Source: an uncultured Candidatus Saccharibacteria bacterium | Lineage (GTDB): Bacteria > Patescibacteriota > Minisyncoccia > Minisyncoccales > Staskawiczbacteraceae | Direction of reading: 5' to 3' | Length of the DNA: 64,000 nt | NCBI GenBank assembly: GCA_964599285.1 | Contig: CAZREI010000001.1 | Location: 34,562 to 98,561, forward strand | Shown here: one piece after another, positions 6,838 to 40,305 of the stretch | Position numbering within the stretch: the first letter of the stretch is position 1 | Layout: the number at the start of each line of letters is the position of its first letter | Notes under the pieces: generated by a model | Told to the model about the DNA's origin: nothing | The model's database searches: none | Seen by the model: the letters and a program-made list of their open reading frames with translations, nothing else | Made by a program: the position numbers and the translations under genes

Positions 6838-7386
6838 ATGATTTCCTTAATTGCCGCGGTTGCCCAAAACGGAGTTATTGGTTATAGAAACGCCATGCCC
6901 TGGAATTTGCCCAATGATTTTCGATGGTTTAAGGAAAAAACGTTTGGCAAACAGTTAATTGTTGGACGCAAAACGTTTGAATCCATCGGCAAAAAACCGT
7001 TGCCCAACCGATCCCATGTTATCCTGACTACCCAGCGGGCATACGAAATCCCCAGCGATTGTAATTGTGTTCTGGCGCACTCTATAGATCAGGTCTTGGC
7101 GCTGACGCAGGAAAATCAAGAAACCATGGTATGCGGTGGCGGAATTGTCTACCAGCAATTTTTGCCCACGGCAGACAGGATGTACCTGACGTACGTTCAC
7201 CACGACTTTGAGGGAGACGTGTTCTTTCCAGAATTTTCGCCAACCCAATGGAGCCAAATCAATAAAAGGGACTACGGTCCCGATGAGGAAAATGTATACG
7301 CGTACTCCATCATCACTTTCCAAAAAACCAAGACTTCTTTGAATTACGAAATGCTTTCGAGGTATTTTCTTCAAATTTTGAGATAG
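6838..7386 (+). CDS. folA: dihydrofolate reductase
   Basis: 'MISLIAAVAQNGVIGYRNAMPWNLPNDFRWFKEKTFGKQLIVGRKTFESIG' is classic DHFR. The start was moved to ATG 6838. The last ~16 codons and the stop lie inside repeat family A. Confidence 0.85.
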   Translation: MISLIAAVAQNGVIGYRNAMPWNLPNDFRWFKEKTFGKQLIVGRKTFESIGKKPLPNRSHVILTTQRAYEIPSDCNCVLAHSIDQVLALTQENQETMVCGGGIVYQQFLPTADRMYLTYVHHDFEGDVFFPEFSPTQWSQINKRDYGPDEENVYAYSIITFQKTKTSLNYEMLSRYFLQILR

Positions 7387-7508
7387 AAATTTGATAGAAT
7401 TTTTCGGCTTAGCCAACGGCTCCGCCGAAAAATTATAGCGAATTTGTAGCCAAAATTTGGAGAAAAGACCCGAAATCCACTTTTTAATGTGCATTTCGTA
7501 ATTCAAAG
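7339..7508 (+). repeat. family A long-hairpin MITE-like element, copy 1
   Basis: TIRs are TTGAATTACGAAATG...CATTTCGTAATTCAA. Core is 'gagatagaaatttgatagaatttttcggcttagccaacggctccgccgaaaaattatagcgaattt'. Confidence 0.85.
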
Positions 7509-7513
7509 AAGGT

Positions 7514-8287
7514 TTAGCTCTTGGTTTTTCTTTGCTTACCGCTACCGCCTTTACGCCATGGCATTGAAGAAAATAGGGGATAGTACACATCTTCTTTTGT
7601 TTTGATTTCAAATGAAGAAAACGGCAGTTTTGACACGACGGGTTTAGTTACAAATGTTACCCAGGGAATGTCGGTGATAAGGCAAAGCGGCGTAGCCTCG
7701 GACCCTTCACCCATTAAAACAACAGCAGCCGCGGCAAGCCCATCGGCAATATTGGTTTGAGCCATTTTAAATTTTCTTCCAAACAAGTCGGGCTTGGCGC
7801 GATAATCTTTTAAGGGATTAAATCCGTAGTGGGCCAGCGAAATTCCCAAAACGCCGCGACGCAGGGGGAGGGTGTGAGAATCAGTAATAATAATGCCCAG
7901 ATTTTTTACCTTATATTTTTTTCGAAGCCAAGTCCATAATTGTTTTGCTGCGGCTTGCACATCTTTTGGCCATAGAATGTAGTAGCCATCAGCGTTACTT
8001 TCGTCAACGCCGGCCGCGGGAATGAATACATTATTTTTTATGGTGTGCATGCACCAAGCTCCCGGGGTGGCTTGGCGAGGCAAATACAAATCAGCTTCTT
8101 GCGCTACCAGTTCGTCCTTATTATGATCGATCATCGGCACACAGCATCCTTGCCAAATGCTCACTACTTTTGAGGTAATGGCGATGATACTTTTTTCGGG
8201 AATGGATTTTACAGAATCTTCAATGGCCGCCAAAAGATCATCTTGCGGTGGCCGGAGAACGCTGGTTTTAATGGGTTGCACGATCAT
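7514..8287 (-). CDS. CofE-family gamma-glutamyl ligase-like protein
   Basis: 'IITDSHTLPLRRGVLGISLAHYGFNPLKDYRAKPDLFGRKFKMAQTNIADGLAAAAVVLMGEGSEATP' matches the F420-0:gamma-glutamyl ligase fold pattern. Convergent with folA. Confidence 0.65.
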   Translation of the reverse strand: MIVQPIKTSVLRPPQDDLLAAIEDSVKSIPEKSIIAITSKVVSIWQGCCVPMIDHNKDELVAQEADLYLPRQATPGAWCMHTIKNNVFIPAAGVDESNADGYYILWPKDVQAAAKQLWTWLRKKYKVKNLGIIITDSHTLPLRRGVLGISLAHYGFNPLKDYRAKPDLFGRKFKMAQTNIADGLAAAAVVLMGEGSEATPLCLITDIPWVTFVTKPVVSKLPFSSFEIKTKEDVYYPLFSSMPWRKGGSGKQRKTKS

Positions 8288-8333
8288 ACTTATGTAATGT
8301 TAATTATTGGGTAATAATATCATTGGCGCATCA

Positions 8334-8366
8334 AAAAATACAGTCCGCTTGAACTGTATTTTTTCA
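8334..8366 (-). terminator. hairpin terminator (bidirectional shape)
   Basis: aaaaaatacagt..actgtatttttt, downstream of the 72-aa gene on the minus strand. Confidence 0.5.
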
Positions 8367-8386
8367 CGTCTAACCGAGTGAGTGCT

Positions 8387-8605: not shown

Positions 8606-8676
8606 AGGTTTTTACGATATTAATTGTTAATGCGCGACCTTTAGTAACATATAAGACGAAGCTGTTGGTAAATCTT

Positions 8677-8725
8677 TTTATTATGGCCCAGCTAAGCGGG
8701 CCTACCCCGCCCAGCGGGGTGCGAC
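8677..8725 (+). repeat. family B double-hairpin element, degenerate copy
   Basis: 'tttattatggcccagctaagcgggcctaccccgcccagcggggtgcgac' shares the ACCCCGC-NNN-GCGGGGT hairpin. Confidence 0.4.
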
Positions 8726-8921
8726 TCCGCCAGGGGGATCAAGGTTCGATAAGCAGATTGGCAAACACCCAAGGAGATTGAGCAACTGAACCTCAAAAGA
8801 AATCCCTTATTGTTGCGTCGCATATTATACTACCCCGAATCGCCCAGCCAAATCTCTTCATTTCCCTTCATTGGTTGCGGTGGTTCGGGGGAAAGACAAA
8901 TGGGTCGGCTTGTTTTCATTA

Positions 8922-9092
8922 CCGTGAATCGCGAAATGGTTTCTTTGGATTTCCCCCAATTTTTGAGATAGAAATTTGATAGAATTTTTCGGCTTAGCCA
9001 ACGGCTCCGCCGAAAAATAATAGCGAATTTATAGCCAAAAATTGGGGGAAAGACAAGAAATACGTTTTCATCATCCATTTCGTAATTCACGG
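8922..9092 (+). repeat. family A element, copy 2
   Basis: TIR variant CCGTGAATCGCGAAATGG...CCATTTCGTAATTCACGG with the same core as copy 1. Confidence 0.85.
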
Positions 9093-9118
9093 TTCATTAT
9101 CATTCATTTTTTAAAATT

Positions 9119-9162
9119 TTGAATTACGATTTGAATGGCATTGTCCATTTTGTAATTCAAAG
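9119..9162. repeat. family A solo-TIR mini hairpin
   Basis: 'ttgaattacgatttgaatggcattgtccattttgtaattcaaag' has only the terminal inverted repeats. It ends 9 nt before the ATG at 9171. Confidence 0.6.
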
Positions 9163-9170
9163 CAAAACCT

Positions 9171-9593: not shown

Positions 9594-9608
9594 TGGGAAA
9601 ATAATCAA

Positions 9609-9643: not shown

Positions 9644-9664
9644 GCAACGGATCATTTAAGATTT

Positions 9665-9881
9665 CCTTGAATTACGAAATGCCCGTTTAAGAAGACTCTT
9701 TTTGTCTTTTCCGAGACGGGGCGAATTGACTGCGGCCAATTGCGCCTCGCGTCTTGACCAAATTTTGGCTATAAATTCGCTACAATTTTTCGGCGGAGCC
9801 GTTGGCTAAGCCGAAAAATTCTATTGAATTTCTATCTCAAAATTTGAGAAAAATCCTAAAAAGGCATTTCGTAATTCAAGG
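9665..9881 (-). repeat. family A element, copy 3 (inverted, with a ~45-bp internal insert)
   Basis: The core is in reverse orientation ('ggctataaattcgctacaatttttcggcggagccgttggctaagccgaaaaattctattgaatttctatctc'). Extra segment 'ccgagacggggcgaattgactgcggccaattgcgcctcgcgtcttgacc'. Confidence 0.8.
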
Positions 9882-10322: not shown

Positions 10323-10330
10323 GTTTTAGA

Positions 10331-11168: not shown

Positions 11169-11176
11169 AAAGCATT

Positions 11177-11249
11177 GGGCCCATAGCTCATTCGGTAGAG
11201 CGCGCGCATGGCATGCGCGAGGTGACGAGTTCGAATCTCGTTGGGTCCA
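11177..11249 (+). tRNA. tRNA-Ala (anticodon GGC)
   Basis: Manual cloverleaf: acceptor GGGCCCA/TGGGTCC with G3:U70, D arm GCTC..GAGC, anticodon loop ATGGCAT, T arm ACGAG-TTCGAAT-CTCGT, discriminator A. No encoded CCA. Confidence 0.9.
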
Positions 11250-11252
11250 CAA

Positions 11253-11310
11253 CTTATTGTGCGACCCCGCTTAGCGGGGTCAAGGGTCCGCTGGGCGGAC
11301 CGACAAAATC
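11253..11310 (+). repeat. family B double-hairpin element
   Basis: 'cttattgtgcgaccccgcttagcggggtcaagggtccgctgggcggaccgacaaaatc'. Confidence 0.85.
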
Positions 11311-11396: not shown

Positions 11397-12284
11397 ATGA
11401 GGTTGCAATACAAATTATTTTTATTTGGGCTATCGGTGGCGCTGGTTTTTTTCGCTCGGTTTTCAATTGCGGATGCTTTGCCGGCGCCTGGTGTAGTTAT
11501 TTCTTCTGATCATCTTGCGCAAGCTGACACGCTTTTGGTGGCCGTAAAAAATGAAACTGTAAAACCAGCGGGAACTTTGGGCAACGTAAAGCTACGATTT
11601 TTTCAAAGTCAAAATCAACAGGATTGGATTGCTTTAGTGGGCATGCCTGTTAGCAAAAAACCTGGTGATTATTTGCTCACCGTTACGGTCGCCGGCAAGG
11701 CGCCGTTTCAAAAAACCATTACCGTGGCGGCGCGGGAATTTCCGGTTACCGAATTGGTGTTAACGCCCCAGCTTTTACAAGAAGGCTACACGGCCAAAAA
11801 AATTATCAAAAATATCACCACCAAAGAAAATGTGCGTTTGGAAAAAGTGCTAAGCGTTATCCATAAAAAATCTTATATTGCAAAACCTTTTATTGACCCG
11901 CTCAAAGAAATTAAAATCGTGGGACCGTTTGGCGATATCCGGGCAACTAAAAAATATAAAATCCAGCACTTGGGGGTTGATTTGGCGGCACCCATCGGCA
12001 CGCCGGTGCTGGCGGTCAACGATGGCAAAGTGGTGTTTGAAAAAAGTTTGCCTGATTATGGCAACACACTGGTCATAGATCACGGCCTGGGATTATATTC
12101 GCTATATCTGCACCTTAAAACCTTCAACGTAAAAACGGGGGCCGCGGTAAAGCAAGGGGACACGGTGGCGCTATCGGGAAACACCGGGTACGTGACCGGC
12201 CCGCACTTGCATTTTTCTATCAAGATGCGCGGAGCTGCATTAGATCCACTAAAATTCATCCAAACCACGCAAACCACTTGGTAG
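11397..12284 (+). CDS. M23/LytM-family peptidoglycan endopeptidase
   Basis: Signal peptide, then 'HLGVDLAAPIGTPVLAVNDGKVV', 'GNTLVIDHG' and 'GNTGYVTGPHLHFSI'. Confidence 0.85.
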   Translation: MRLQYKLFLFGLSVALVFFARFSIADALPAPGVVISSDHLAQADTLLVAVKNETVKPAGTLGNVKLRFFQSQNQQDWIALVGMPVSKKPGDYLLTVTVAGKAPFQKTITVAAREFPVTELVLTPQLLQEGYTAKKIIKNITTKENVRLEKVLSVIHKKSYIAKPFIDPLKEIKIVGPFGDIRATKKYKIQHLGVDLAAPIGTPVLAVNDGKVVFEKSLPDYGNTLVIDHGLGLYSLYLHLKTFNVKTGAAVKQGDTVALSGNTGYVTGPHLHFSIKMRGAALDPLKFIQTTQTTW

Positions 12285-12286
12285 AT

Positions 12287-12343
12287 TTATTATGCGACCC
12301 CGCTTAGCGGGGTCAGGGGTCCGCTTAGCGGACCGACAATTTG
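12287..12343 (+). repeat. family B double-hairpin element
   Basis: 'tttattatgcgaccccgcttagcggggtcaggggtccgcttagcggaccgacaatttg'. Confidence 0.85.
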
Positions 12344-16020: not shown

Positions 16021-16896
16021 ATGAAAACCATACCATTATTTGCTTTCGCGGGAATTATTGCGCTATTTTTCGTTGCCAGTTTTTTGCCGGTCCAGCCTGC
16101 AAAAGCCATTACCTGCTACTCGCACGCCTCGCGCCAATGCATCAGTAATATTTCTTACTGGTATAACTCCTGTGGCGTCCTGGAAGACTTGGCCCAAAAC
16201 TGTAATGCCACCGGCCAGGTCTGTCAAAGCGGCCAATGCGTCAGTAAAAACCCCGTAACGACAATAACCCCAAGACCAACCCCGCAAAGCTCGCCGGTTT
16301 TGGTGCAAGCTCAGAATTCTCAAACCGCCAGCGCGACCATTGCTGTTTTTGGAAAAAATCACACCGACAGCGCGCAATGGACCAAAAATGTTTCCGCGGC
16401 GACTGGCAGCACCATTGACGTTTTGATTGTTGTCAAAAATAAATCCGAAACTCCCATCACCGATGCCTCGGTAAAAACATATTTGACCAGCCCGATTTTT
16501 ACCATCAGCGACTTACAAATTAACAACGCAACGGCTCCTTCCAACGATATTTCCCAAATTAACCTTGGTACGCTGGCAGCCAAAACAGCGCAAATTATTT
16601 CTTTTAGCGCGACGGTGCAATCACCCAGTGTCCAACCCCAAGCAAACGGCGCGACCGGAACCCAAATTATTGCCAACGTTACTTCGGGCACGGCCACGTA
16701 CGATTCGGATTACCTGGTAGTTTCTACCAACGCCGGCAATGGCGCATTAGCATCGGCTACTCCCACTGCCAGCCCAAGTTCAAAATTGGGATCCGGTTTT
16801 TTTAGCTTTAACAATAACTGGTTTATTTGGTTTTTGATCGTCCTGGTGCTGGTAGTAATCTTTATCATTTTGTTCAGGCGATTCTCCCGCGAATAA
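16021..16896 (+). CDS. secreted/anchored protein with a Cys-rich 'YWYNSCG' module and a DUF11-like domain
   Basis: Signal peptide. 'CYSHASRQCISNISYWYNSCGVLEDLAQNCNATGQVCQSGQCV'. C-terminal TM 'WFIWFLIVLVLVVIFIILFRRFSRE'. Confidence 0.7.
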   Translation: MKTIPLFAFAGIIALFFVASFLPVQPAKAITCYSHASRQCISNISYWYNSCGVLEDLAQNCNATGQVCQSGQCVSKNPVTTITPRPTPQSSPVLVQAQNSQTASATIAVFGKNHTDSAQWTKNVSAATGSTIDVLIVVKNKSETPITDASVKTYLTSPIFTISDLQINNATAPSNDISQINLGTLAAKTAQIISFSATVQSPSVQPQANGATGTQIIANVTSGTATYDSDYLVVSTNAGNGALASATPTASPSSKLGSGFFSFNNNWFIWFLIVLVLVVIFIILFRRFSRE

Positions 16897-16903: not shown

Positions 16904-17079
16904 AACCGTGAATCACGAAATGGACAATAAGAAACATATTTCTTGTCTTTCCCCCAATTTTTGGCTATAAATTCGCTATAATTTTTCGGCGGACCCTTTG
17001 GGTAAGCCGAAAAATTCTATCAAATTTCTATCTCAAAAATTGGGGAAAATCCAAAGAAACCATTTCGTGATTCACGGTT
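16904..17079 (-). repeat. family A element, copy 4
   Basis: TIRs are CCGTGAATCACGAAATGG...CCATTTCGTGATTCACGG with the core in reverse orientation. It ends 10 nt before the ATG at 17090. Confidence 0.85.
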
Positions 17080-17089: not shown

Positions 17090-19717
17090 ATGCCCCAATC
17101 CGCAGCGGTTTTTGAATTTACTTCTTATACATTTGAACCCGATAAAAAAAGGGTTCTTTTCCGTTACACCACCAAATTTAAGGATCGACCACCGCTGCGT
17201 TTTACCGAAACTATTTTGTTGCCAAAGATTCCCAACCTTGATCGCATTCCGCCAGAACCTTTAAAAAAACTCCTCCAAAGCCTGCACTTAATACTGGGCA
17301 TCAGTTATTACAAGTTTTATTGCCCGCCCGCCGTAGCCTTGGCGAAGGAGGATGCGAAACTGTCAAAACAAGAAGCCGAGTTTTGGAACATCGTATACAA
17401 AAAAGGCCTTGGCGAATTTTTTTACAAAAACAATCTGAATCCAAACCGCGCTCCAAAATTTCCGTACGGGGTAACCCGTAACCAGGAACCCGTAACCAGT
17501 AAATTACGCGTTACGGGTTACGCGTTACCGGTTACCAAAAGATCTCTCGTGGGCATCGGGGGAGGAAAAGACTCCATCGTCGCCGCGGAATTATTGAAAG
17601 AAGGCGGGTTTGACGCCACCGCGTTTTACGTTCAAACCAGCAGCGACTCATCGCTGGTAAATAGCATCATCAAAAAAACTGGCCTGCCGTCGCTGAAAAT
17701 TCGACGATTGCTAGACGAAAAAGTGCATCAACCTCATCTTTATGATGGCCATGTTCCCGTGTCAGCCATCCTGGCATTTTTGGGATTTTTTGCCGGCATA
17801 CTTTACGGTTTTGATTATGTCATCGTGGGCAACGAATACAGCAGTAACTTTGGCAACCTCAAATACAAAGGTTTAGACATTAACCACCAGTGGAGCAAGT
17901 CGTTTGAATTTGAAACGCTTTTTCAAACCTATGTAAAAACTTTCATCACGCCTGACATAACCTATTTTTCTTTGCTGCGGCGGTTTTACGAAATCCGGAT
18001 TGTAAAATTGTTTGCAAGTCATAAAAAATATTTTCCGCATTTTTCAAGCTGCAATTCCAATTTCAGAATCGCGGAATCACGCGGAAATTTACGCGGAAAA
18101 ATGCGGAATAAATGGTGTGGTCGATGTGCTAAGTGTGTTTTTGTATTTACACTTCTGTCGGCGTTTTTACCAAAAAAAGAATTGGTTAACATTTTTAAAA
18201 AAAACTTGTACCAAGATAAAACTCTCCTGCCATTATTTAAAGATATTTTGGGATTTGGCGCGATGAAACCTTTTGATTGCGTCGGCACGTTTGAAGAAGC
18301 GCAAACCGCGATGTGGCTGGCCAAAAAAAGATTCGCCCGTGATTTTATTATGCGACAACTTGGCCGGCGCGTAACATTTCACCAAGAAGTTTTTACGACC
18401 AACAAAAACGCCCGCATTCCCGAACAGTTTACTTTCTTGGGAATGGATAGCACGTTGATAGCCGGATTTGGCAACGAGGGAAGTGCTACCAAGAAATACC
18501 TTGAAAAATATTACCCAAAATTAAAACTTGGGATAGCCGAAATATATAAAAATAGGGAAGTGTTCCGCGTAGTTCCGCGTGAATTTCCGCGTAGTTCCGC
18601 GGCTTTTGATCTGGCAATCAAAACTCCAGGCATCAAAAAAGAACTGATTAAAATTCCGTACACCACCGCCACCAATATTTTTTTCTCAAATATTTCCGGC
18701 AAATATCTTACTATCGGCGTTACCGGCAGCAAAGGAAAAAGCACCACCGCGTCACTCATTTTTCATATCTTAAAAACCGCCGGAAAAAATGTTCACCCCG
18801 TTAAATCCGCCAAAAGCGGTGTTTCGCAAACTGCGAAACAATTTAACAGGGTAAAACTATTGGGCAACATTGGAAAACCCATGCTAGAAAATTTGCTCCA
18901 TCCTATAGCAAAAAATACCATTTTTGTCCTGGAACTTTCCAGTTACCAGTTAGATGACCTGCGGTTTTCTCCCGATATTGCCGTGGTGACAAATTTATTT
19001 CCGGAGCACTTGGATTTTCACGGTAGTCTTCAACATTATTACGATGCCAAAAAAAATATCATCCGCTACCAGCAGCCCGACCAATATTTTGTCTACGATA
19101 AAAAAACTGAACCGTGGCTAAAAGAATATCGAGGCAAGCCGGTGCCATTTGCCAAAACAATTCCGGTTCCAAAACACCAAATTCCATTATTGGGTCAGCA
19201 CAATGAAAGCAACATTAAAGCGGCCATCGCCGTCGCTCGGATTTTAAAAATTCCGGAAGCAAAAATAAAAAAAGCCATTAAATGTTTTAAAGGCTTACCG
19301 CATCGATTAGAAAACGTAGGAACATTTAAGGGAATTATTTTTTACGACGACGCCATTTCCACCACGCCCGAATCAACCATCATGGCCATCAAAGCCTTGC
19401 CAGGCGTGCAAACTATTTTTTTGGGAGGCAGCGACCGCGGCTACGATTTTTCGCAGTTGGAAAAAACCTTAAAACAATATAAAATAAAGAACGTGGTGCT
19501 GTTTCCCGACACCGGCTCGCGCATCATAAAAAACACCAAGGGTTTGAATATTCTAAAAACTCGCAGCATGGAAAAAGCGATTGCCTTCGCCTACAAACAC
19601 ACCACACCAGGACACATCTGTTTATTGTCCTGCGCATCGCCCAGCTATTCATTATGGAAAAACTTTGAACACAAAGGCACCCAATTTACCAGATTGGTAA
19701 AAAAGTTGGCTAAGTAG
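17090..19717 (+). CDS. murD: fusion protein: PP-loop-like N-terminal domain (possible MurL-type epimerase) plus UDP-MurNAc-L-Ala--Glu ligase MurD
   Basis: The C-terminal half carries 'IGVTGSKGKSTTASL', 'LELSSYQLDD', 'NLFPEHLDFHGS' and 'GLPHRLE'. The N-terminal ~455 aa carry 'VGIGGGKDSIVAAELL' and 'WCGRCAKC'. Confidence 0.85.
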   Translation: MPQSAAVFEFTSYTFEPDKKRVLFRYTTKFKDRPPLRFTETILLPKIPNLDRIPPEPLKKLLQSLHLILGISYYKFYCPPAVALAKEDAKLSKQEAEFWNIVYKKGLGEFFYKNNLNPNRAPKFPYGVTRNQEPVTSKLRVTGYALPVTKRSLVGIGGGKDSIVAAELLKEGGFDATAFYVQTSSDSSLVNSIIKKTGLPSLKIRRLLDEKVHQPHLYDGHVPVSAILAFLGFFAGILYGFDYVIVGNEYSSNFGNLKYKGLDINHQWSKSFEFETLFQTYVKTFITPDITYFSLLRRFYEIRIVKLFASHKKYFPHFSSCNSNFRIAESRGNLRGKMRNKWCGRCAKCVFVFTLLSAFLPKKELVNIFKKNLYQDKTLLPLFKDILGFGAMKPFDCVGTFEEAQTAMWLAKKRFARDFIMRQLGRRVTFHQEVFTTNKNARIPEQFTFLGMDSTLIAGFGNEGSATKKYLEKYYPKLKLGIAEIYKNREVFRVVPREFPRSSAAFDLAIKTPGIKKELIKIPYTTATNIFFSNISGKYLTIGVTGSKGKSTTASLIFHILKTAGKNVHPVKSAKSGVSQTAKQFNRVKLLGNIGKPMLENLLHPIAKNTIFVLELSSYQLDDLRFSPDIAVVTNLFPEHLDFHGSLQHYYDAKKNIIRYQQPDQYFVYDKKTEPWLKEYRGKPVPFAKTIPVPKHQIPLLGQHNESNIKAAIAVARILKIPEAKIKKAIKCFKGLPHRLENVGTFKGIIFYDDAISTTPESTIMAIKALPGVQTIFLGGSDRGYDFSQLEKTLKQYKIKNVVLFPDTGSRIIKNTKGLNILKTRSMEKAIAFAYKHTTPGHICLLSCASPSYSLWKNFEHKGTQFTRLVKKLAK
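17464..17536. repeat. intragenic in-frame hairpin (CGTAAC/GTTACG words)
   Basis: 'ggtaacccgtaaccaggaacccgtaacc...gttacgggttacgcgttaccggttacc' encodes 'GVTRNQEPVTSKLRVTGYALPVT'. Confidence 0.7.
18067..18113 (+). repeat. intragenic array of 4x CGCGGAA
   Basis: 'aatcgcggaatcacgcggaaatttacgcggaaaaatgcggaa' encodes 'ESRGNLRGKMRN'. Confidence 0.7.
18558..18602 (-). repeat. intragenic array of 4x TTCCGCG (inverse of the 18067 array)
   Basis: 'ttccgcgtagttccgcgtgaatttccgcgtagttccgcgg' encodes 'FRVVPREFPRSSA'. Confidence 0.7.
18796..18851. repeat. intragenic in-frame compound hairpin
   Basis: Outer stem ccccgttaaat/atttaacaggg with inner hairpins ccgc-caaaa-gcgg and tgtttcgc-aaact-gcgaaaca. Encodes 'HPVKSAKSGVSQTAKQFNRV' between the MurD P-loop helix and 'LLGNIG'. 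Confidence 0.7.
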
Positions 19718-19720
19718 AAC

Positions 19721-19806
19721 TGGCTACCAAATACGAATCTGTACGAATATACCAATAACCAAAGCGTTTTCATTCGTATATTCGTACAGATTCGTATTTG
19801 GTAGCA
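19721..19806. repeat. family D (TACGAATAT-word) long hairpin, copy 1
   Basis: Perfect 29-bp stem gctaccaaatacgaatctgtacgaatata / tatattcgtacagattcgtatttggtagc. It ends 3 nt before the ftsW start. Confidence 0.85.
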
Positions 19807-19808
19807 TA

Positions 19809-20936
19809 GTGATGAAGCAACACATAAATTATTATTTTTTAGGATTATCCATTATTCTTTCCGGATTCGGTCTGCTGTTTTTATCAACCCTTTCGGCCAT
19901 CGCCTCGCTGCAAGTGTTTGGCAACACTAACCACTATTTATTCCACCAATTAATTGCCCTGGTCATTGGCATTGTTGCCGGCATCATCATATTTTTTCTG
20001 CCGCTGGGATTTTTAAAAAAACTGTCGCCGATATTGCTGGTAATAAATGTTTTGGGATTGGTGGTGGTATTTTTGCCATTTTTGGGAACCAAATTTTGGG
20101 GTGCTTCGCGCTGGATTAGCGTGGGAGACACCACCTTCCAACCTTCGGAATTTTTTAAAATCACCATCATTTTATTTTTTGCCAGCTGGCTTGCCAGCAA
20201 GTTCTCCGAGTCATCAAAAAGAGGCTTTGGATTTAAAATAAAAAAAGAGTACGATAATCTGGTAAAAGTATTTGTGCCTTTTGTTATTTTTTTGGCCATC
20301 ATCGCCGCCATTTTTTATTTACAAAAAGACATCAGCACGCTGGGCATTATCATGGTGGCGCTCTTGGGAATGTACTTTATTGCTGGCACGCCGATTTGGC
20401 ACACGCTGACATTGCTAGTGGTTGGAGTGTCAGGTGCGGCGCTGGTTATTATTAAAGAACCTTATCGCTTAAACCGTTTGCTGATATTTTTGCATCCGGA
20501 CGCCGACCCTTTGGGCAAAGGATTACAATTAAAACAGTCACTCATTGCCCTGGGATCAGGTGGTTGGTTTGGAAAGGGGCTTGGCATGTCCACCCAAAAA
20601 TTCGGCTTTTTGCCCCAAGCCATGTCGGACTCTATTTTTGCCATTTTGGGAGAGGAACTGGGCATCATCGGTTGCGCTATTTTGGTGCTGGCATTTTTAG
20701 CATTTTTGTATTTGGGATTTAAAATCTCGCGCCAATCAACTGATTCATTTGCTCGCCTGACCGCCGTTGGCATCACCCTGTGGATTGTGTTTCAGGCGTT
20801 TTTCAACATAGCCTCAACCCTGGGGTTGTTTCCACTAAGCGGCATTCCGCTGCCATTTTTTTCTTACGGAGGCTCGCACATCATAGCGGAACTGATGGGA
20901 GTGGGGTTGATGTTGAATATCTCTAAGAACGGGTAA
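19809..20936 (+). CDS. ftsW: SEDS-family peptidoglycan glycosyltransferase FtsW/RodA
   Basis: Multi-TM protein with 'GGWFGKGLGMS', 'SDSIFAILGEELG' and 'PLPFFSYGGS'. Confidence 0.9.
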   Translation: MMKQHINYYFLGLSIILSGFGLLFLSTLSAIASLQVFGNTNHYLFHQLIALVIGIVAGIIIFFLPLGFLKKLSPILLVINVLGLVVVFLPFLGTKFWGASRWISVGDTTFQPSEFFKITIILFFASWLASKFSESSKRGFGFKIKKEYDNLVKVFVPFVIFLAIIAAIFYLQKDISTLGIIMVALLGMYFIAGTPIWHTLTLLVVGVSGAALVIIKEPYRLNRLLIFLHPDADPLGKGLQLKQSLIALGSGGWFGKGLGMSTQKFGFLPQAMSDSIFAILGEELGIIGCAILVLAFLAFLYLGFKISRQSTDSFARLTAVGITLWIVFQAFFNIASTLGLFPLSGIPLPFFSYGGSHIIAELMGVGLMLNISKNG

Positions 20937-21536: not shown

Positions 21537-22649
21537 ATGAAAATACTTTTTACCGGTGGGGGAACGGGCGGCCACTTGTTTCCCGTCATTGCCATCGCCC
21601 GGGAACTCAAGCGCTTGTCGCAGGACCCGTCCATTAGCCTGCACTACATTGGTCCCGCGGACAGATTGGGCAGCGCGGTTTTGGCCCAGGAAAACATTGC
21701 CATTCATTCCATTGTTGCCGGAAAACTGCGCAACTATTTTTCTTTACAAAATATCAGCGACGCGCTTTTTTTTATTCCCCTTGGATTTTTGCAAAGCTTT
21801 TTTTTGTTGCTTTTTATCCGACCCAATCTGGTTTTCAGCAAAGGCGGCACCGGATCGGCCCAGGTGGTACTGGCCGCCAGAATTTTGGCCATCCCGATAT
21901 TCATTCACGAATCCGATTCGGTAGCCGGCCGCGCCAACAAGCTGGCCTATTCGTGGGCCAAAAAAGTGTTTGCCTCATTTGAAAAAACTGATTACTTTGA
22001 CCCGTCAAAATCCGTGGTAGTGGGCAACCCGATATTAAAAGAAATCACCGAAGGTGACAAAAAAACCGCAAAAGATATTTTCAATCTTGCACTGCAAAAA
22101 CCGGTTTTACTCTTTTTGGGAGGTTCGCAAGGCGCCCAGCCCATCAACGATTTTATCCTTGGCATTTTGCAGGATCTGACAAGAAGTTACCAGGTCATCC
22201 ATGTCTGTGGCAAAAAAAATGAAACAGCAGTCAAAGAAGAGTCTGACGTGATTTTGACTGGCGACGCAAAAGCGCAATACCATGTTTTTGGATTCCTCAA
22301 TGAAATAGAACTAAAACATGCCTTCGCCGTCGCGGACTTGGTGGTTTCGCGGGGCGGGTCGGGCAGCATTTTTGAAATCGCCGCTTGCGGCAAACCCAGC
22401 ATTATTATTCCTTTGCCATCATCGGCCAACAACCACCAAGCCAAAAATGCCTATGCGTACGCCAAAAATGGCGCGGCGCTGATCATAGAACAAGACAACC
22501 TGACCCCAAACTTTTTTCTGGAAAAACTGCGCAATTATTTTTCACATCCGGAAGAGTTGGAAAGCATGAGCCAAGCCGCCCTGCAATTTGCCAAGCCACT
22601 GGCAGCCAAAGCGATTGCAAGAGAAATCTTGGAATTTCTCAATGCGTAA
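21537..22649 (+). CDS. murG: UDP-GlcNAc:lipid I N-acetylglucosaminyltransferase MurG
   Basis: 'KILFTGGGTGGHLFPVIAIA', 'RGGSGSIFEIAACGKPSIIIPLP' and 'HQAKNA'. Confidence 0.9.
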   Translation: MKILFTGGGTGGHLFPVIAIARELKRLSQDPSISLHYIGPADRLGSAVLAQENIAIHSIVAGKLRNYFSLQNISDALFFIPLGFLQSFFLLLFIRPNLVFSKGGTGSAQVVLAARILAIPIFIHESDSVAGRANKLAYSWAKKVFASFEKTDYFDPSKSVVVGNPILKEITEGDKKTAKDIFNLALQKPVLLFLGGSQGAQPINDFILGILQDLTRSYQVIHVCGKKNETAVKEESDVILTGDAKAQYHVFGFLNEIELKHAFAVADLVVSRGGSGSIFEIAACGKPSIIIPLPSSANNHQAKNAYAYAKNGAALIIEQDNLTPNFFLEKLRNYFSHPEELESMSQAALQFAKPLAAKAIAREILEFLNA

Positions 22650-22788
22650 TTGATCTAATTAACCTAATTATTCTAATTGATCTAATCAAATCCCAATGCC
22701 AAAATGTCCAAACCGTTTTAGCAATTAGTCATTCACGTTTTTAGACATTCCTTAGAATAATTAGGTTAATTAGAACAATTAGAATAAT
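22648..22788 (+). repeat. family F long hairpin (AATTAGAATAATT arms), copy 1
   Basis: Arms 'taattaacctaattattctaattg' and 'cttagaataattaggttaattagaacaattagaataatt'. It ends 7 nt before the gltX ATG. Confidence 0.8.
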
Positions 22789-22795
22789 TTAAAAA

Positions 22796-24275: not shown

Positions 24276-24309
24276 AATGGCTAATTCGCACGAATTAGCC
24301 ATTTTTATT
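24276..24309 (+). terminator. hairpin terminator after gltX
   Basis: aatggctaattcg..cgaattagccatt followed by tttatt. Confidence 0.55.
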
Positions 24310-24360
24310 GTGCGACCCCGCTCAGCGGGGTCAAGGTCCGCTTAGCGGACCGACAGTTTG
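24304..24360 (+). repeat. family B double-hairpin element
   Basis: 'tttattgtgcgaccccgctcagcggggtcaaggtccgcttagcggaccgacagtttg'. Confidence 0.85.
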
Positions 24361-25080: not shown

Positions 25081-25119
25081 ATTTTACGGATGTGGTAAAA
25101 TACATTAACGCGTCGCAAT

Positions 25120-25174
25120 CTTATTGTGCGACTCCGCTCAGCGGAGTCAGGGTCCGCTTAGCGGACCGACAAAT
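25120..25174 (+). repeat. family B double-hairpin element
   Basis: 'cttattgtgcgactccgctcagcggagtcagggtccgcttagcggaccgacaaatg' carries a compensated hairpin variant (ACTCCGC/GCGGAGT). Confidence 0.85.
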
Positions 25175-26631: not shown

Positions 26632-26729
26632 GTGTCGCACAATAAAACGCTCCTACCCACCTACGAGTAGGAGTGTTTTGTCGGTCGCTAAGCGGACCCT
26701 GACCCCGCTCAGCGGGGTCGCATAATAAG
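26632..26729 (-). repeat. composite: truncated family B tail, 24-nt hairpin module, full family B copy (left island boundary)
   Basis: 'gtcgcacaataaaacgctcctacccacctacgagtaggagtgttttgtcggtcgctaagcggaccctgaccccgctcagcggggtcgcataataag'. Confidence 0.85.
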
Positions 26730-26804
26730 ATTGAGGCAAAGAAAAAGCCCTGCGCATTGCTGACGCCGGGCCTGTTTTTTTTTGCGTGGTAAGCGTGGAT
26801 ACGC

Positions 26805-27615: not shown

Positions 27616-27671
27616 AAGTCGGTCCGCTCAGCGGACCGAAACCCCGCTTAGCGGGGTTGCACAATAAAAAG
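27616..27671 (-). repeat. family B double-hairpin element
   Basis: 'gaagtcggtccgctcagcggaccgaaaccccgcttagcggggttgcacaataaaaag'. Confidence 0.85.
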
Positions 27672-30413: not shown

Positions 30414-30552
30414 CTTGTCGGTCCGCTAAGCGGACCTTGACCCCGCTCAGCGGGGTCGCATAATAAAACACTCCTACTCGTAGGTGGGTAGGAGTGTTTT
30501 GTCGGTCCGCTACGCGGACCCTGACCCCGCTCAGCGGGGTCGTATAATATAA
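30414..30552 (-). repeat. composite: family B copy, 24-nt hairpin module (flipped), family B copy (right island boundary)
   Basis: 'cttgtcggtccgctaagcggaccttgaccccgctcagcggggtcgcataataaaacactcctactcgtaggtgggtaggagtgttttgtcggtccgctacgcggaccctgaccccgctcagcggggtcgtataatat'. Confidence 0.85.
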
Positions 30553-31407: not shown

Positions 31408-31444
31408 ACAATTGTTATGTAATTGAACTATTAAAGTTATTATC

Positions 31445-31530
31445 TTGCTACGAAATACGAATTTTTTACGAATATACGAAACTAAACGCTTATGTTCGTA
31501 TATTCGCAGGTAATTCGTATTTCGTAGAGA
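31445..31530. repeat. family D long hairpin, copy 2 (rpmA leader)
   Basis: 'gctacgaaatacgaattttttacgaatatacgaa...ttcgtatattcgcaggtaattcgtatttcgtagaga' ends 5 nt before ATG 31536. Confidence 0.85.
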
Positions 31531-31535
31531 AATTC

Positions 31536-31814
31536 ATGTCAACAAGTAAATCATCAGGTTCATCCAGGCTCGGCCGAGATTCGGCCGCACAGCGCCTTGG
31601 CATTAAGCGATACGCCGGCCAAACGGTAAAAACCGGCATGATCATCGTGCGCCAGCGCGGCACGCGGTATTTGCCTGGAAAAAATGTAAAACGCGGATCG
31701 GACGATACGCTCTACGCCTACAAACCGGGAACGGTGCGGTTTGCAACTAAATTAAAAAAGTTATTTAATGGACGGCAACGGCAGGTTAAGGTGGTGAATG
31801 TAGACGCAAAATAA
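31536..31814 (+). CDS. rpmA: ribosomal protein L27
   Basis: '[56 protein letters not shown]'. The start was trimmed to ATG 31536. Confidence 0.9.
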
Positions 31815-35901: not shown

Positions 35902-36210
35902 TTATATCGCGTTTTCTTTCTGGCGGATTTGGAGGATTTTGTTTTGGAGGGTTCTTTGGGCCATCAGGTCCTTTGGGTTTTTAATTCCCAATTTTGGCAT
36001 GATTCCCAAGAATCCCGACCGGTACATCCAAATGCCGATGACCGCAATTACCAGCGGCAGGAAAAACGAATCGGTCAAAAGATTATTGGTCAGCCCAGTT
36101 GAAACATTAGTTGGGCCAAGTCCTGGTGTCACAATCACCGACGCGCTGGCGTTTCCTGGGTCATACCCGGGATCGGTGGTAGTGACAATAACGTTGTTTG
36201 CACTAGTCAT
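35902..36210 (-). CDS. small membrane protein
   Basis: 102 aa with TM 'FFLPLVIAVIGIWMY'. The start context 'tcgtagagaaattcATG' is identical to that of rpmA. Confidence 0.45.
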   Translation of the reverse strand: MTSANNVIVTTTDPGYDPGNASASVIVTPGLGPTNVSTGLTNNLLTDSFFLPLVIAVIGIWMYRSGFLGIMPKLGIKNPKDLMAQRTLQNKILQIRQKENAI

Positions 36211-36215
36211 GAATT

Positions 36216-36304
36216 TCTCTACGAATTACGAATGTAGTACGAATATACGAATGCAAATGTTTTTGGTTATTGGTATATTCGTAAAAAATTCGTATTTCGT
36301 AGCA
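36216..36304. repeat. family D long hairpin, copy 3
   Basis: 'ctctacgaattacgaatgtagtacgaatatacgaatg...ggtatattcgtaaaaaattcgtatttcgtagca'. Confidence 0.85.
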
Positions 36305-36308
36305 TATT

Positions 36309-39300
36309 TTATCTTAATACTTGCGCGTAGTAAGTAATGGTTCTTGTCTGGCCTTGGGTGATGCTGCCGATGTTTAATCCCGATATCACGTCGCCGGAAT
36401 TAGGAATGCCGTCAACCGTTAAGTTTCCCTTGTAAATTAAGTTGTAAGGCAGAAGATCTCGCACCGAAACATTGTTGACGTTCTGAAAGGCAGATGAAGA
36501 AACTACAATTTTAAACTGGACAACATCATCAACGTGGGCATAGACAAAGTTTCCCCAGGTCAACAGTCCATTGGAAAGGTTGCGCACGGTTTTTACCACA
36601 ATGAACGAAGACCGGCTTGTCGTCTGTCCCACACAAGAACTGTTTTGGCAGGTTTGGTTGCCCTGGCAATACTGCGCCACTTCCTGCTGGTTGCCGCAGG
36701 AGTTGTACCAGTACACATTATTGTTGGAACAGAGCTGGTAGGAATGGTTGATGCAGAAATTATTATTGTTATTGATACAGCTTCCGTTCTGGCAGGTTTG
36801 GTTTGAATTGCAGTTGTAGCTGAAGGTTCGGTTGCCGCAATTGTCTTGATTATACACCGCGTTTCCTTGGCAAATCTGGCTGGTATTCTGGTTGCAATTT
36901 TGGTTAACTTGAACACTGCAAGAAGCGCTTTGCGTCTGACCAGCCGATGTTACGGTGACCGAAGCGGTTTGGGTATTTGAATAGTAGTTTGAGTTTGAAA
37001 AAACGTTGGAACAGCTTTGATTGGAACCACTGCAAGCTCCCGACCATTGGTAAGTGTAGCTGCTGTTGCCGCCGGTTGGGCTGGCCGTAAAGGTTACCAC
37101 CTGGTTGGCATTGGCCGGATTTGGAGAAGCATTGCAGGTAACCTGTAAATTGCTTTGAGTTTGGTTAACTTGAACGGAACAGGTGGTGTCTTTAGTTTGG
37201 CCATCGGATGTTACTCTCAAGTTGGCGGTTTGGGTTCCGGTGCTACCAAAAGAATTTTGGCAAGTTTGGCTGGAACCGGTACAGGCGTTGGTCCACTGGT
37301 AATTATAGGTTCCATTGCCACCGCTGACGGTTGGCACAAAGGTTACTTGCTGATTAGTGTTGGCGGGATTAGGAGCAGCCAAACACGAAGCTTGCAGATT
37401 ATTATTGGTAGTTTGATTAACCTGAACACTGCAGATTGCGTCCTGAACTTGACCACCCGAAGTCACCCGAAGCCCGGCATTAAAGGTGCCTGTATTGCTA
37501 AACGTAGTGGAGCAGGTTTGGCCGGAGCCGGTGCAGGCATTGGTCCATTGATAAGTATAGCTGCCGTTCCCACCATTGATAATTGGGAAAAAGGTTACTT
37601 GCTGGTTAGTCGTTGTAGGGTTTGGTGAAGCGCTGCAAGAAATTTGCAAAGGATTTGGCGTTGGGGTTGGGGTAGGAGTTGGGGTCGGGGTTGGCGTAGG
37701 TCCTGGATTTACCTGGACCGTGCAGACCGCATCTTGGGCCTGATTGCCCGAAGTTACATGAAGCGCAGCAGTATAAGTTCCTGGCGCAAATGAGTTTACG
37801 CAGGTTTGGTTATTTCCATTGCAAGCCAACATCCAATGATAAGTATAACTTCCCGTTCCGCCGATGGCGCTTCCAGTAAAGGTAACTGGCTGGTTTGGTG
37901 TGGCGGGATTGGGAGCGCCGCTGCAAGAAATTTGCAGGTCGGCAGTTGGCGCTATAATGCTGAAATAATTGTCTGATAGATCGTTTGGAGCACCGGTTTG
38001 GGTAACATCATCGACTTCTATTTTGTATGTATTGCCTTGTAGCCCAGCTGGTATTGTCCATGAATATGATCCAGAATTAATGGTATTCGCTATAAGCGTA
38101 CTGACAACAACGCCACGATAATCATTAAGGAAAATCTGAATGTTTGCATTTAATGGCACGTTAGTTGATGTCCACGTAATAGTGTGCGTGGTTCCTTGAA
38201 TCCATTGCTCACCTCCATTTGGTGAAATCACGGTAATAGTTGGTGTTGGATTGTTATTGCAGGTGCCGTTTGAGCAGGTTTGGTTGCTTTGGCAATTCTG
38301 CACCAAATTGCCTCGCACTCCGCAAGAGTCAAAGTTGTAAACACCGGTAACTCCGTTGACCGTGGTGCATTGCTGGGATGCGTTTGGAGTGCAGGTTTGG
38401 TTGACTAATACACTGCACGAAGCAGTTTGGGTTTGGTTTCCCGAGGTAACGGTTACGGACGCAACGTGGATTCCCGGAAAAGCATACGCTACCCTGCAAA
38501 TTTGGGCGCTATCGCACATGGCTACTCCTCCGGTCCATTGGTAGCTATAACTGCCAGTGCCTCCGGTGGGTATAGGGGTAAAGGTAACTTGCTGGTTAGT
38601 GTTGGCTGGATTAGGAGAGGAAGAACAGGAAACTTGCAGAGGGTTTGGATTTTGAATGCAGGTTCCGCCCATGCACGTTTCGTTTGCATTGCAAGGTGTT
38701 TTTTGCTGAAACACGGTAGCGGTGTCACAACGGGCATTGGGTGTTGAAGGATTGACACAAGTATTGGTGGTAAAATCTTGCCACACACTGCCGTTAAAGC
38801 ATCTTGGGAATCCCGTGTATCCAGTAGCTCCGCAATCGGTGTTAGTGTTGCACGCGATAGTTTGGTTCTGGCAGACGGCAGTGCTGGAACTGGTGTTGAC
38901 GCAGGTTTGGTTGGTGGTGCAATTTTGGGCAAGACTGCCTCGCACTCCACAAGAATCAAAGTTGTAAACACCGGTAACTCCGTTGATTGTGGCACATTGC
39001 TGAGATGCGTTAGGAGTGCAAACCTGGTTTACCTGGACATCGCAAGTGGCATCCTGGAATTGGCTCCCTGATGTTACATGCAAATGTGCCGTATAGGTTC
39101 CTGGATTTGAAAAGGTGCGAGCGCAGCTTTGGTTGGAACCATTACAATCGCCGGTCCATTGATAGATGAAATTTCCAACGCCTCCGGTAACCGAAGCATG
39201 AAATTGCATTGCGGTGTTGGTCGATACGGGGTTTGGAAAAGCAAAACAGGAAACTTGGAAAGGAAAAGGAGTCGGAGTTGGCGTGGGATTATTAAAACAG

Positions 39301-40025
39301 CTTCCGGATTGGCAAGTTTGGATTGAAGAACAGCTATGGTCAAACGTTTGATTTCCGCAAGAGTCTACATCAAATACCGAATTATTTTGACAGATCTGGC
39401 TGACGTTAGGCGTGCAAGTTGGCGTTGGGGTCGGGGTGGGAGTTGGCGCTGGAGATGGAACGAGACTCGGACAATCATTTATTAAATTTGCAAAGGAATA
39501 CCCAAAAGGCTGACCTGGGTAAGTTACCACTGGCGCGACGCCATTGATGGCATCCATGAAAAAATCCAGCTGCATGGATCCGCAGGACTGGTTGTTAAAT
39601 TGCACCACGTCGGCTTCTATCAATTTGCTTTCACCGGGTTGCAAGGTTACGTCTTGTGAAATGACTTGGCAGGCCTGGCTGGTGGGATTTTGGTCGGGAG
39701 TCCAGTAGTGCTGGCACTGGCCGATTCCGGATCTGGCTGGCCAACCACTGGCTTCCTGGCAACGACAAGAAAACTTGCGCAAAGCAAGCGTCTTGGCAAA
39801 TCCATCGTTGTTTTTGACCCAGGCTTGCAGGCTGTTTTGGCCGCCCACAACATACTGGGCAATCGGGCCGATAGTCAGCCCGTTAAAATAACTTGATGGG
39901 GCAATGACCGTGCCGCTGTTGCCATAGGTATAGTCGGCCGATATTACTCCCGGGTACAATAAGATGCTGGCCAACGCAAAAAACAGCAATGCGCCGGTGC
40001 TCGATGCTTTATATACTATCTTCAT
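36309..40025 (-). CDS. giant secreted protein: ~8 PKD-like repeats, ~6 Cys-rich modules, C-terminal DUF11-like domain
   Basis: Signal peptide from ATG 40025. Repeats 'LQVSC..PNPA.TNQ.VTF....GG.G.Y.YQW...C.G..Q.C'. Cys modules 'C.PNASQQC......VYNFDSCG.......C..NQTC'. PT-rich linkers. Confidence 0.8.
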   Translation of the reverse strand: MKIVYKASSTGALLFFALASILLYPGVISADYTYGNSGTVIAPSSYFNGLTIGPIAQYVVGGQNSLQAWVKNNDGFAKTLALRKFSCRCQEASGWPARSGIGQCQHYWTPDQNPTSQACQVISQDVTLQPGESKLIEADVVQFNNQSCGSMQLDFFMDAINGVAPVVTYPGQPFGYSFANLINDCPSLVPSPAPTPTPTPTPTCTPNVSQICQNNSVFDVDSCGNQTFDHSCSSIQTCQSGSCFNNPTPTPTPFPFQVSCFAFPNPVSTNTAMQFHASVTGGVGNFIYQWTGDCNGSNQSCARTFSNPGTYTAHLHVTSGSQFQDATCDVQVNQVCTPNASQQCATINGVTGVYNFDSCGVRGSLAQNCTTNQTCVNTSSSTAVCQNQTIACNTNTDCGATGYTGFPRCFNGSVWQDFTTNTCVNPSTPNARCDTATVFQQKTPCNANETCMGGTCIQNPNPLQVSCSSSPNPANTNQQVTFTPIPTGGTGSYSYQWTGGVAMCDSAQICRVAYAFPGIHVASVTVTSGNQTQTASCSVLVNQTCTPNASQQCTTVNGVTGVYNFDSCGVRGNLVQNCQSNQTCSNGTCNNNPTPTITVISPNGGEQWIQGTTHTITWTSTNVPLNANIQIFLNDYRGVVVSTLIANTINSGSYSWTIPAGLQGNTYKIEVDDVTQTGAPNDLSDNYFSIIAPTADLQISCSGAPNPATPNQPVTFTGSAIGGTGSYTYHWMLACNGNNQTCVNSFAPGTYTAALHVTSGNQAQDAVCTVQVNPGPTPTPTPTPTPTPTPNPLQISCSASPNPTTTNQQVTFFPIINGGNGSYTYQWTNACTGSGQTCSTTFSNTGTFNAGLRVTSGGQVQDAICSVQVNQTTNNNLQASCLAAPNPANTNQQVTFVPTVSGGNGTYNYQWTNACTGSSQTCQNSFGSTGTQTANLRVTSDGQTKDTTCSVQVNQTQSNLQVTCNASPNPANANQVVTFTASPTGGNSSYTYQWSGACSGSNQSCSNVFSNSNYYSNTQTASVTVTSAGQTQSASCSVQVNQNCNQNTSQICQGNAVYNQDNCGNRTFSYNCNSNQTCQNGSCINNNNNFCINHSYQLCSNNNVYWYNSCGNQQEVAQYCQGNQTCQNSSCVGQTTSRSSFIVVKTVRNLSNGLLTWGNFVYAHVDDVVQFKIVVSSSAFQNVNNVSVRDLLPYNLIYKGNLTVDGIPNSGDVISGLNIGSITQGQTRTITYYAQVLR

Positions 40026-40132
40026 AATCGTGGCGCGCTTTATTAGGCTCGCGTAAGTAGATGCCCGAGAAACTTGGCAAATCCCCACTACAAAACAAAG
40101 CGTCAAATTAATTTACCTTTTTATGTATTTTA

Positions 40133-40305
40133 CTTTGAATTACGAAATGCTTTCGAGGTATTTTCTCCAAATTTTGAGATAGAAATTTGATAGAATTTTT
40201 CGGCTTAGCCAACGGCTCCGCCGAAAAATTATAGCGAATTTATAGCCAAAATTTGGAGAAAAGACGCGAAACTCGCCTTTTCAAATGGCATTTCGTAATT
40301 CAAAG
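40133..40305 (+). repeat. family A element, copy 5
   Basis: Near-identical to copy 1 (TTGAATTACGAAATGCTTTCGAGGTATTTTCT...). Confidence 0.85.

Follow-up and report, generated by a model that had tools for sequence, protein, structure and literature searches.

The 64,000-nucleotide stretch of DNA analysed here (the window; contig CAZREI010000001.1 of the uncultured Candidatus Saccharibacteria assembly GCA_964599285.1) carries, in the spaces between its genes, five copies of a short non-coding repeat that we call family A, together with a mini-element of the same kind (Table 1). The initial annotation had described five copies, in both orientations, of an element resembling a MITE (miniature inverted-repeat transposable element). 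All five were recovered at positions that proved right or off by 2–3 nt, and both orientations are indeed seen when strand is assigned, as it is throughout, from the orientation of the asymmetric core. Repeat finding groups the copies as one family in both orientations, whole-length alignment is good for all five, and their pairwise identity is 84–95%. They are 171–217 bp long, and the open reading frames (ORFs) that overlap them are merely read-through tails or spurious, so that they have no coding capacity. Every full copy ends in terminal inverted repeats (TIRs) of 18–19 bp with the consensus C-Y-K-TGAAT-Y-R-CGAAATG-S (C-Y-K-TGAATTACGAAATG-S), and the window contains three variants (CTTTG.../...CAAAG, CCTTG.../...CAAGG and CCGTG.../...CACGG), in each of which the two ends co-vary. 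With up to 2 mismatches allowed, the 14-nt TIR core TGAATYRCGAAATG has 14 matches in the window, where 2.9 ± 1.7 would be expected, and none of 100 shuffles reaches 14; twelve of these matches mark the termini of the five copies or of the mini-element, and the scan revealed no additional TIR copies in the 64 kb. The internal insert of ~45 bp reported for copy 3 corresponds to a nested GC-rich hairpin. What had been taken for a solo TIR at 9119–9162 is a TIR-only element, as described, that contains two TIRs, left and right, rather than one. The MITE-like character originally proposed thus finds support in the TIRs, the lack of coding capacity, the diverged intergenic copies and the target-site duplications, and we consider it likely that family A is a genuine MITE family mobilised in trans by a transposase.

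The flanks, which the initial annotation had suggested searching for target-site duplications, bear a 7-bp duplication that is perfect at copies 2 and 5 and matches at 5/7 positions at copies 1 and 3. Among 15 unique family A copies from the window and elsewhere, the flanking 7-mers agree at 7/7 positions in five (two in the window, three elsewhere), at 6/7 in one and at 5/7 in three, and two more copies lie between perfect repeats of 8 bp (CTCTTGAG) and 6 bp (GTTCTA); in a control that set the left flank of one copy against the right flank of another, 0% were perfect and the mean match was 2.2/7. Copy 1 sits between convergent genes for DHFR (6766–7386, +) and an F420-ligase-like protein (7514–8287, −), and the DHFR ORF takes its final 16 codons and its stop from this copy. 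When copy 1 and one copy of the duplication are removed from the sequence, the DHFR ORF ends aag-act-TAG, and this pre-insertion TAG overlapped the TAA of the convergent F420-ligase-like gene, an intergenic distance of zero; the Pfam DHFR domain (residues 25–187 of 206) is intact although copy 1 displaced the stop codon. Similarly tight is the site of copy 4, which takes up 172 of the 193 bp separating a stop at 16896 from an ATG at 17090, and the elements lie at a median of 92 bp from the closest ORF. Orientation relative to co-directional neighbour genes is 3:6 for family A and 14:7 for the related types B and C described below, with no significant bias. Mini-elements with only the TIRs also occur in the genome of Candidatus Staskawiczbacteria RIFCSPHIGHO2_02_FULL_42_22 (hereafter MHOT01), at L014 5250–5277 and at L026 5682–5733, the latter with an 8-bp duplication (CCGAAAGG) within a terminator-like hairpin.

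The family extends well beyond the window. Among species-representative genomes a 23-nt core pattern found 27 stretches, of which 24 lie in MHOT01, where there are at least 24 core matches over 14 contigs, and 3 in the metagenome-assembled genome (MAG) CAYHFP01. In metagenomes a second core pattern found 34 stretches in Rifle groundwater datasets and one in a Hainich groundwater assembly; the same pattern had no match in IMG/VR, and BLAST of one copy against phage and plasmid collections returned only a chance AT-rich match. The window does not derive from MHOT01, since the only long similarity between the two is a syntenic block of 75% DNA identity. It is worth considering whether the repeats could be an assembly artefact, collapsed or chimeric, an objection that the initial annotation had itself foreseen. 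Short-read assemblies of these organisms do break at the repeats, and in the Logan assemblies SRR8931233 and SRR8931234, to which exact matches of window proteins assign the organism of the window, the contigs end inside family A copies. Furthermore, in another Rifle dataset L049 1–330 has the same family A copy and right flank as L007 2017–2315 (99.7% identity) joined to a different left flank, a discrepancy that arose either because the repeat recombined or because the contig is chimeric. Against this, the five window copies differ by 5–16%, have unique flanks and carry their own duplications, and related copies recur on two continents, in five or more independent assemblies, so that an artefact is almost certainly the wrong explanation. 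The repeats are real and belong to a group of Parcubacteria-type bacteria of the Candidate Phyla Radiation (CPR).

The interior of these elements is as characteristic as their ends. Each copy forms a single long hairpin; the fold of copy 1 has an energy of −75.4 kcal/mol compared with −31.0 ± 3.9 for shuffles (z = −11.4). Inward of the TIR, one of the two arms has ~16 nt that are variable and stay unpaired. Beyond these lie two further stems and then a box of conserved sequence (TTGATAGAAT in one arm, ATTATAGC in its partner), whose G-A mismatches are conserved as well. A GC-rich hairpin forms the apex. The GC-rich apex noted at the outset is present in the window copies, but in the family at large otherwise collinear elements bear at least five different apexes, so that the apex sequence is not conserved family-wide and only the adjoining GATAG/TATAGC box is. 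A consensus hairpin derived from 14 family A copies, which represent four sources, contains 66 pairs, with 97.2% of cells paired (97% in helix 1, the TIR) and compensatory double changes in 31 of the 66 pairs. None of 500 column shuffles matched the observed pairing and compensation, and sliding the partners by 1–3 columns reduced pairing to 34–57%.

Very strong covariation over the full stem, an excess of G-U pairs over A-C mismatches on one strand and the placement of copies tight against gene ends are features that could point to regulatory RNAs with a defined structure, or to cis elements acting at the RNA level (as stabilisers, terminators or sites for RNase III), kept for a host function and with the terminal repeats as the base of the stem. 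We regard this as quite improbable. Unrelated flanking sequence is duplicated, there is no orientation bias with respect to neighbour genes, the family includes TIR-only derivatives as well as insertions nested in one another, conservation does not extend to the apex sequence, and a promoter and terminator scan made no calls within the copies. Nor do the copies belong to an already described non-coding RNA family as far as Rfam is concerned: at the gathering threshold the only match in the window is a tRNA, and in a permissive search with one copy the best matches were plant microRNA-precursor hairpins at 22–24 bits, compared with gathering scores of 83–211. A TATAAT on the bottom strand is conserved but, read from the sequence, has no −35 partner at normal spacing. 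In our reading, the hairpin is maintained because lineages that amplify are selected, or corrected intramolecularly, for the ability to fold back, and it is not the mark of a host RNA gene.

In MHOT01 the family A core also occurs in a second context. A core of ~88 bp, 95% identical to the local A-type core, lies within a different shell in elements that we call types B and C, which begin AGACCTGT..., have TIRs that differ from those of family A, and are flanked by 3-bp duplications (AAT, ATT or ACT). The 3-bp flanks are identical in 37 of 41 B and C copies, compared with 30% in controls. Because alignment reveals in types B and C a shortened A-type interior that includes a degenerate TTACGAAA remnant of the A TIR, the common core is best explained as an old nesting event that was later amplified. 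The alternative of a selected cargo module shared by the three types was set aside, given the shortened A element and TTACGAAA remnant inside new outer TIRs. Nesting is ongoing: at L052 a type-C element with an ATT duplication has inserted in an A2-type element, and an uninterrupted paralogue is found at L022 570–749. Many B and C copies contain two extra hairpin modules at fixed internal sites, one of 43 nt (GAGATGGGGAAATTTGTTGCTACAAATTTACCCACATCTTGAC) and one of ~75 nt, and copies with both are 275–319 bp long (MHOT01 L002, L006, L008, L011–L013, L017, L021, L022 and L027). Relatives of the 46-nt GC-rich module of copy 3 are likewise found in MHOT01 as stand-alone and nested copies (~85% identity), with no clear target duplication. 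One type-B element and its flanks are spanned by a 542-bp tandem duplication (MHOT01 L003 309–466 and 851–1008).

The window had been said to encode no transposase, and among the matches listed for its ORFs at E ≤ 1e-6 there is no DDE, Y1 or TnpB family. Other mobile-DNA functions are present near the family A copies: a large serine recombinase (602–1912, −; Resolvase + Recombinase + Zn_ribbon_recom) and, from pooled Pfam scans, a Phage_integrase-family protein, a LAGLIDADG endonuclease and an ORF resembling the coupling protein of type IV secretion systems. In the window and ~590 kb of related loci we found no repeat of at least 400 nt and no long-range TIR pair; candidates were chance matches only, inside peroxiredoxin-like and Obg-like GTPase ORFs (labels from reading the translations). 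No TnpB homologue was found in 588 kb of MITE-bearing genomes. A scan of IMG/VR with the 18-nt TIR gave 11 matches, approximately the chance number, of which ten lie in unrelated coding DNA and have no inverted partner; a looser scan of the same database gave no paired ends among the matches listed.

The eleventh match, L073, is the left end of a 1141-bp element whose right end is an inverted TIR (15/18) and which is placed exactly between two phage ORFs. Its sole product is a TnpB/Cas12f-like protein (Pfam Cas12f1-like_TNB, 6e-18). Judged from its sequence this TnpB copy is probably a pseudogene: it has an in-frame TAG at 7641–7643 where 24 homologues have Trp. The closest homologues of this protein, at 64–69% identity, are encoded at L160, L161/L172 and L297 by elements of 1105–1108 bp in which both ends match the TIR at 15–17/18 positions. 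There are thus four independent solo-TnpB elements, 1105–1141 bp long, with ends that match the MITE TIR consensus at 15–18/18 positions and with the tnpB stop 7–28 nt from the right end. Flanking repeats agree at 7/7 positions in L160 (TGAAGAA) and at 5/7 and 6/8 in the other two homologue loci, but at only 3/7 in L073. The initial annotation had recommended looking for an autonomous partner, and in this regard longer elements with the same TIRs do exist elsewhere, but those found encode TnpB and no recognisable transposase. The idea that L073 is a one-off, a TnpB unit landed in a mini-MITE, is weakened by the three further independent loci with the same ends at the same positions, although such a landing may have been the origin of the lineage. 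TnpB relatives at 54–59% identity lack A-type TIRs; several are in IS607-type units with a serine recombinase, and those at 57–59% are in IS607-type units without TIRs. A more distant viral-contig TnpB (42% identity; L086 2443–3556, and L084) lies between perfect 21-bp TIRs of another sequence, GGAACTATTTACTTAACAAAG, with an 8-bp direct repeat, AAATGATA. Because the TIRs of L086 are different, TIR-type solo-TnpB elements are not restricted to the family A TIR.

These elements have counterparts in the literature. Published examples include TnpBs carried by DDE transposons that have inverted terminal repeats, solo TnpBs whose surrounding ends are identical with the ends of elements bearing a transposase, and mobilised stand-alone omega-RNAs (PMC10691335, PMC13565253), and for solo TnpB in symmetric ends the published inference is that a transposase mobilises the element in trans (Altae-Tran et al. 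2023, PMC10691335). The four elements described here likewise have inverted terminal repeats and flanking duplications, and family A shares both the TIRs and the duplication length. The occurrence of the same TIRs and duplication length around TnpB-only elements of ~1.1 kb therefore places family A in a TIR/duplication lineage that is able to carry a TnpB passenger. TIRs together with a duplication are the signature of a transposase that cuts its target in staggered fashion, and from established transposon biology we infer that the mobilising enzyme would be a DDE-type transposase acting in trans. The published DDE–TnpB associations involve IS630 and IS5-group (ISL2, IS1031) transposases (PMC10691335, PMC13565253). 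For the MITE derivatives of a TIR-type TnpB lineage, no description was found in the literature searched. IS630 and IS5-group transposases make 2–3-bp duplications and do not fit the present lineage, which duplicates 7 bp (6–8 observed).

The link to TnpB invites a different interpretation, in which family A comprises non-autonomous units of OMEGA systems (obligate mobile element-guided activity), either stand-alone omega-RNAs or elements like the palindrome-associated transposable elements (PATEs), transcribed outward through the TIR with the flank as guide and relying on a TnpB in trans for homing or retention. The TIRs are common to the four solo-TnpB elements, the tnpB stop lies close to the right end, where omega-RNA scaffolds normally end, the hairpin has strand-asymmetric wobble pairs, and mobilised stand-alone omega-RNAs are documented (PMC10691335). 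More generally, stand-alone omega-RNAs and IS200/IS605 PATEs are short and non-coding, have ends in common with TnpB-bearing elements and have multiplied in genomes, as family A has. However, local alignment of the MITEs with the last 260 nt of the L073 element, the 3′ part of a TnpB element, gave nothing beyond the TIR, so that no omega-RNA-region homology is shared; PATEs also have asymmetric left-end and right-end hairpins and no duplication. Family A elements are symmetric and found in both orientations, and their genomes yielded no TnpB homologue over the 588 kb searched. To our knowledge, a near-perfect 80-bp hairpin is unlike the known omega-RNA scaffolds. We strongly doubt that family A is of this kind.

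The same features bear on whether family A could consist of palindromes of the REP/BIME (repetitive extragenic palindrome/bacterial interspersed mosaic element) or IS200/IS605-PATE type, moved as single-stranded DNA by a Y1 enzyme (RAYT or TnpA). A whole-length hairpin with strand asymmetry would suit such a mechanism, relatives of the linked TnpB occur in IS607/IS605-type units, and REP, BIME and REPIN sequences are, like family A, abundant intergenic palindromes that combine into mosaics. Nevertheless, the ends of such systems are asymmetric and their insertion leaves no target-site duplication (PMC13565253, PMC6188088), in contrast to the 6–8-bp duplications and symmetric TIRs seen here. 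Specifically, IS200/IS605 PATEs and REP/RAYT systems have asymmetric subterminal hairpins and a fixed 4–5-nt target adjacency (PMC13565253), whereas the duplications of family A vary in sequence and its ends are symmetric; IS607 elements, moved by the serine recombinase TnpA, have neither TIRs nor duplications (PMC6188088), and family A has both. REPs are furthermore only 20–40 nt long, lack duplications and depend on RAYT, which is not so for family A, and no Y1 gene is among the matches listed for the window ORFs. Movement by a Y1 enzyme is accordingly very improbable.

Taken with the preferred reading, that of a MITE family mobilised in trans, the observations suggest the following mechanism. 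A transposase supplied in trans would bind the 18–19-bp TIRs and insert the element at staggered cuts ~7 bp apart (6–8 observed), and repair of the cuts would yield the target-site duplication. The TIRs would be the only part required in cis, because derivatives of 32–52 bp with little beyond two TIRs still show duplications. The interior would be a long hairpin, its pairing kept by compensatory changes, that behaves as a mosaic in swapping apexes and accepting nested hairpin modules, and that would itself have been enclosed by a second shell (types B and C) using other TIRs and a 3-bp duplication. Insertions would survive only in very short intergenic spaces, in either orientation, as expected of elements that behave as selfish DNA and not as a host RNA gene.

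Several observations weigh against this reading. No transposase with family A TIRs was found in the window, in the ~590 kb of related CPR loci or in IMG/VR. There is no duplication at copy 4 or at L004. No pair of empty and occupied sites was found for any A-type copy, the sole empty-site match being the nested type-C case; an empty-site search by exact-protein look-up gave only short Logan contigs ending inside repeats, and the MHOT01 syntenic block (L005) is too rearranged for a clean empty site. Sequence shared by the MITEs with the TnpB elements is confined to 18–35 nt at the ends, and none of the TnpB elements belongs to a MITE-bearing CPR genome, their sources being other organisms and one viral contig. 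With regard to the hairpin, there are 39 G-U cells compared with 7 A-C cells on one strand, and that G-U-rich strand is the more stable in 36 of 39 copies (12/12 in A and 24/27 in B and C), counts that are not independent, much of the asymmetry lying in the shared core. Conservation of the hairpin over its whole length and its strand asymmetry exceed what a plain TIR-transposon model needs. One could instead imagine that family A and the solo-TnpB elements form a lineage without a conventional transposase, in which the RuvC nuclease of the TnpB lineage itself, or an enzyme of an unrecognised class that is perhaps phage-supplied, moves the elements, with the whole-length, strand-asymmetric hairpin as the form that is handled. 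We think this unlikely; if true, it would explain how ~1-Mb CPR genomes that show neither transposase nor TnpB hold dozens of copies.

It is informative to set family A beside the short palindromic repeats of better-known bacteria. Correia/NEMIS elements, the MITEs of Neisseria, have 26-bp TIRs of defined sequence and a TA duplication. Family A has no sequence similarity to them: its duplication is 7 bp (6–8) and not TA, its TIR sequence is different, the whole element and not the TIRs only forms the hairpin, and the host is a CPR/Parcubacteria lineage. The resemblance lies in the general plan, with elements of 100–300 bp that have TIRs and a target-site duplication, are non-coding, occur in tens of copies in intergenic DNA near gene ends, give hairpin-forming transcripts and exist as length variants (traits of Correia/NEMIS taken in part from the reviews PMC2229807 and PMC3184786). 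The ERIC/YPAL elements of enterobacteria are likewise whole-length imperfect palindromes, of 130–170 bp, with insertions at fixed internal sites and in transcribed intergenic DNA; they have unrelated hosts and are probably unrelated in sequence, and family A differs from them in its clear TIR-plus-duplication signature and its TIR-only derivatives. The type of element is thus already known, as a MITE. Less ordinary are the host group, the density, the nesting and the compensatory upkeep of an 80-bp hairpin, and a further unusual trait is the identity of TIRs and duplication with those of solo-TnpB elements.

Family A shares the window with other repeats (Table 1). The second abundant one is a GC-rich double hairpin of ~50 nt (GCGACCCCGCTCAGCGGGGTC-AAGG-TCCGCTTAGCGGACC), intergenic and in both orientations. 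A third family has long TIR-like arms of ACGAAT/ACGAAAT motifs (GCTACGAAATACGAATTTTTTACGAATATAC); the motif is similar to the TIR core of family A, TTACGAAAT, so that one protein may bind to both families. Two more small families are AATTAGAATAATT-type arrays and GATTGCTTCGCTGCGGCTCGCAATGACG, the latter of which also flanks many MHOT01 elements.

Table 1. Positions of family A copies, related modules and other repeats (window coordinates unless a locus is given)
Feature	Positions	Strand	Length	Remarks
Family A copy 1	7337–7508	+	172 bp	Flanking 7-mers aagactt (7330–7336) / aaggttt (7509–7515), 5/7 match
Family A copy 2	8922–9092	+	171 bp	TIR variant CCGTGAATCGCGAAATGG; perfect TTCATTA at 8915–8921 / 9093–9099
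Mini-element	9117–9162	.	46 nt	Degenerate left and right TIR back to back, entire interior deleted
Family A copy 3	9665–9881	-	217 bp	Flanking 7-mers 5/7; holds nested 46-nt module
Nested GC-rich hairpin module in copy 3	~9713–9758	.	46 nt	GAGACGGGGCGAATTG...CGCCTCGCGTCTTGAC; from separate small-repeat family
Family A copy 4	16906–17077	-	172 bp	95% identity to copy 2; no recognisable duplication
Family A copy 5	40133–40305	+	173 bp	94% identity to copy 1; perfect TATTTTA at 40126–40132 / 40306–40312
Relatives of 46-nt module in MHOT01	L002 4447–4492; L012 4420–4462; L022 6046–6087; L004 3526–3567			
Double hairpin	8690–8735, 11249–11304, 12282–12337, 24300–24355, 25116–25171, 26677–26730, 27616–27669, 30415–30468, 30499–30552		~50 nt	
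ACGAAT/ACGAAAT repeat family	19717–19816, 31442–31556, 36208–36311, 40562–40684, 41917–42101			
AATTAGAATAATT-type and GATTGCTTCGCTGCGGCTCGCAATGACG repeats	22642–22794, 50283–50424, 54481–54648; also 14645, 21431, 30555, 55815, 56111			

Genomes of the CPR (Patescibacteria) are ~1 Mb in size and tightly packed, and are usually described as poor in mobile DNA; a full-text literature search found no description of MITEs in CPR or Parcubacteria. Here, one CPR lineage holds hairpin MITEs that form a diverse and nested community, with a density of about one per 10–25 kb, and whose insertions extend to intergenic gaps of zero length and in one case rewrote the C-terminus of DHFR. The breaks that these repeats cause in assemblies matter for the quality of MAGs from such organisms. 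In addition, the link between MITEs and TnpB offers a handle on which enzyme moves TIR-type TnpB transposons, and it bears on whether OMEGA nucleases ride on, or help, the prokaryotic transposons that make target-site duplications. The element at L160, with an intact TnpB and defined ends, is a compact candidate for tests.

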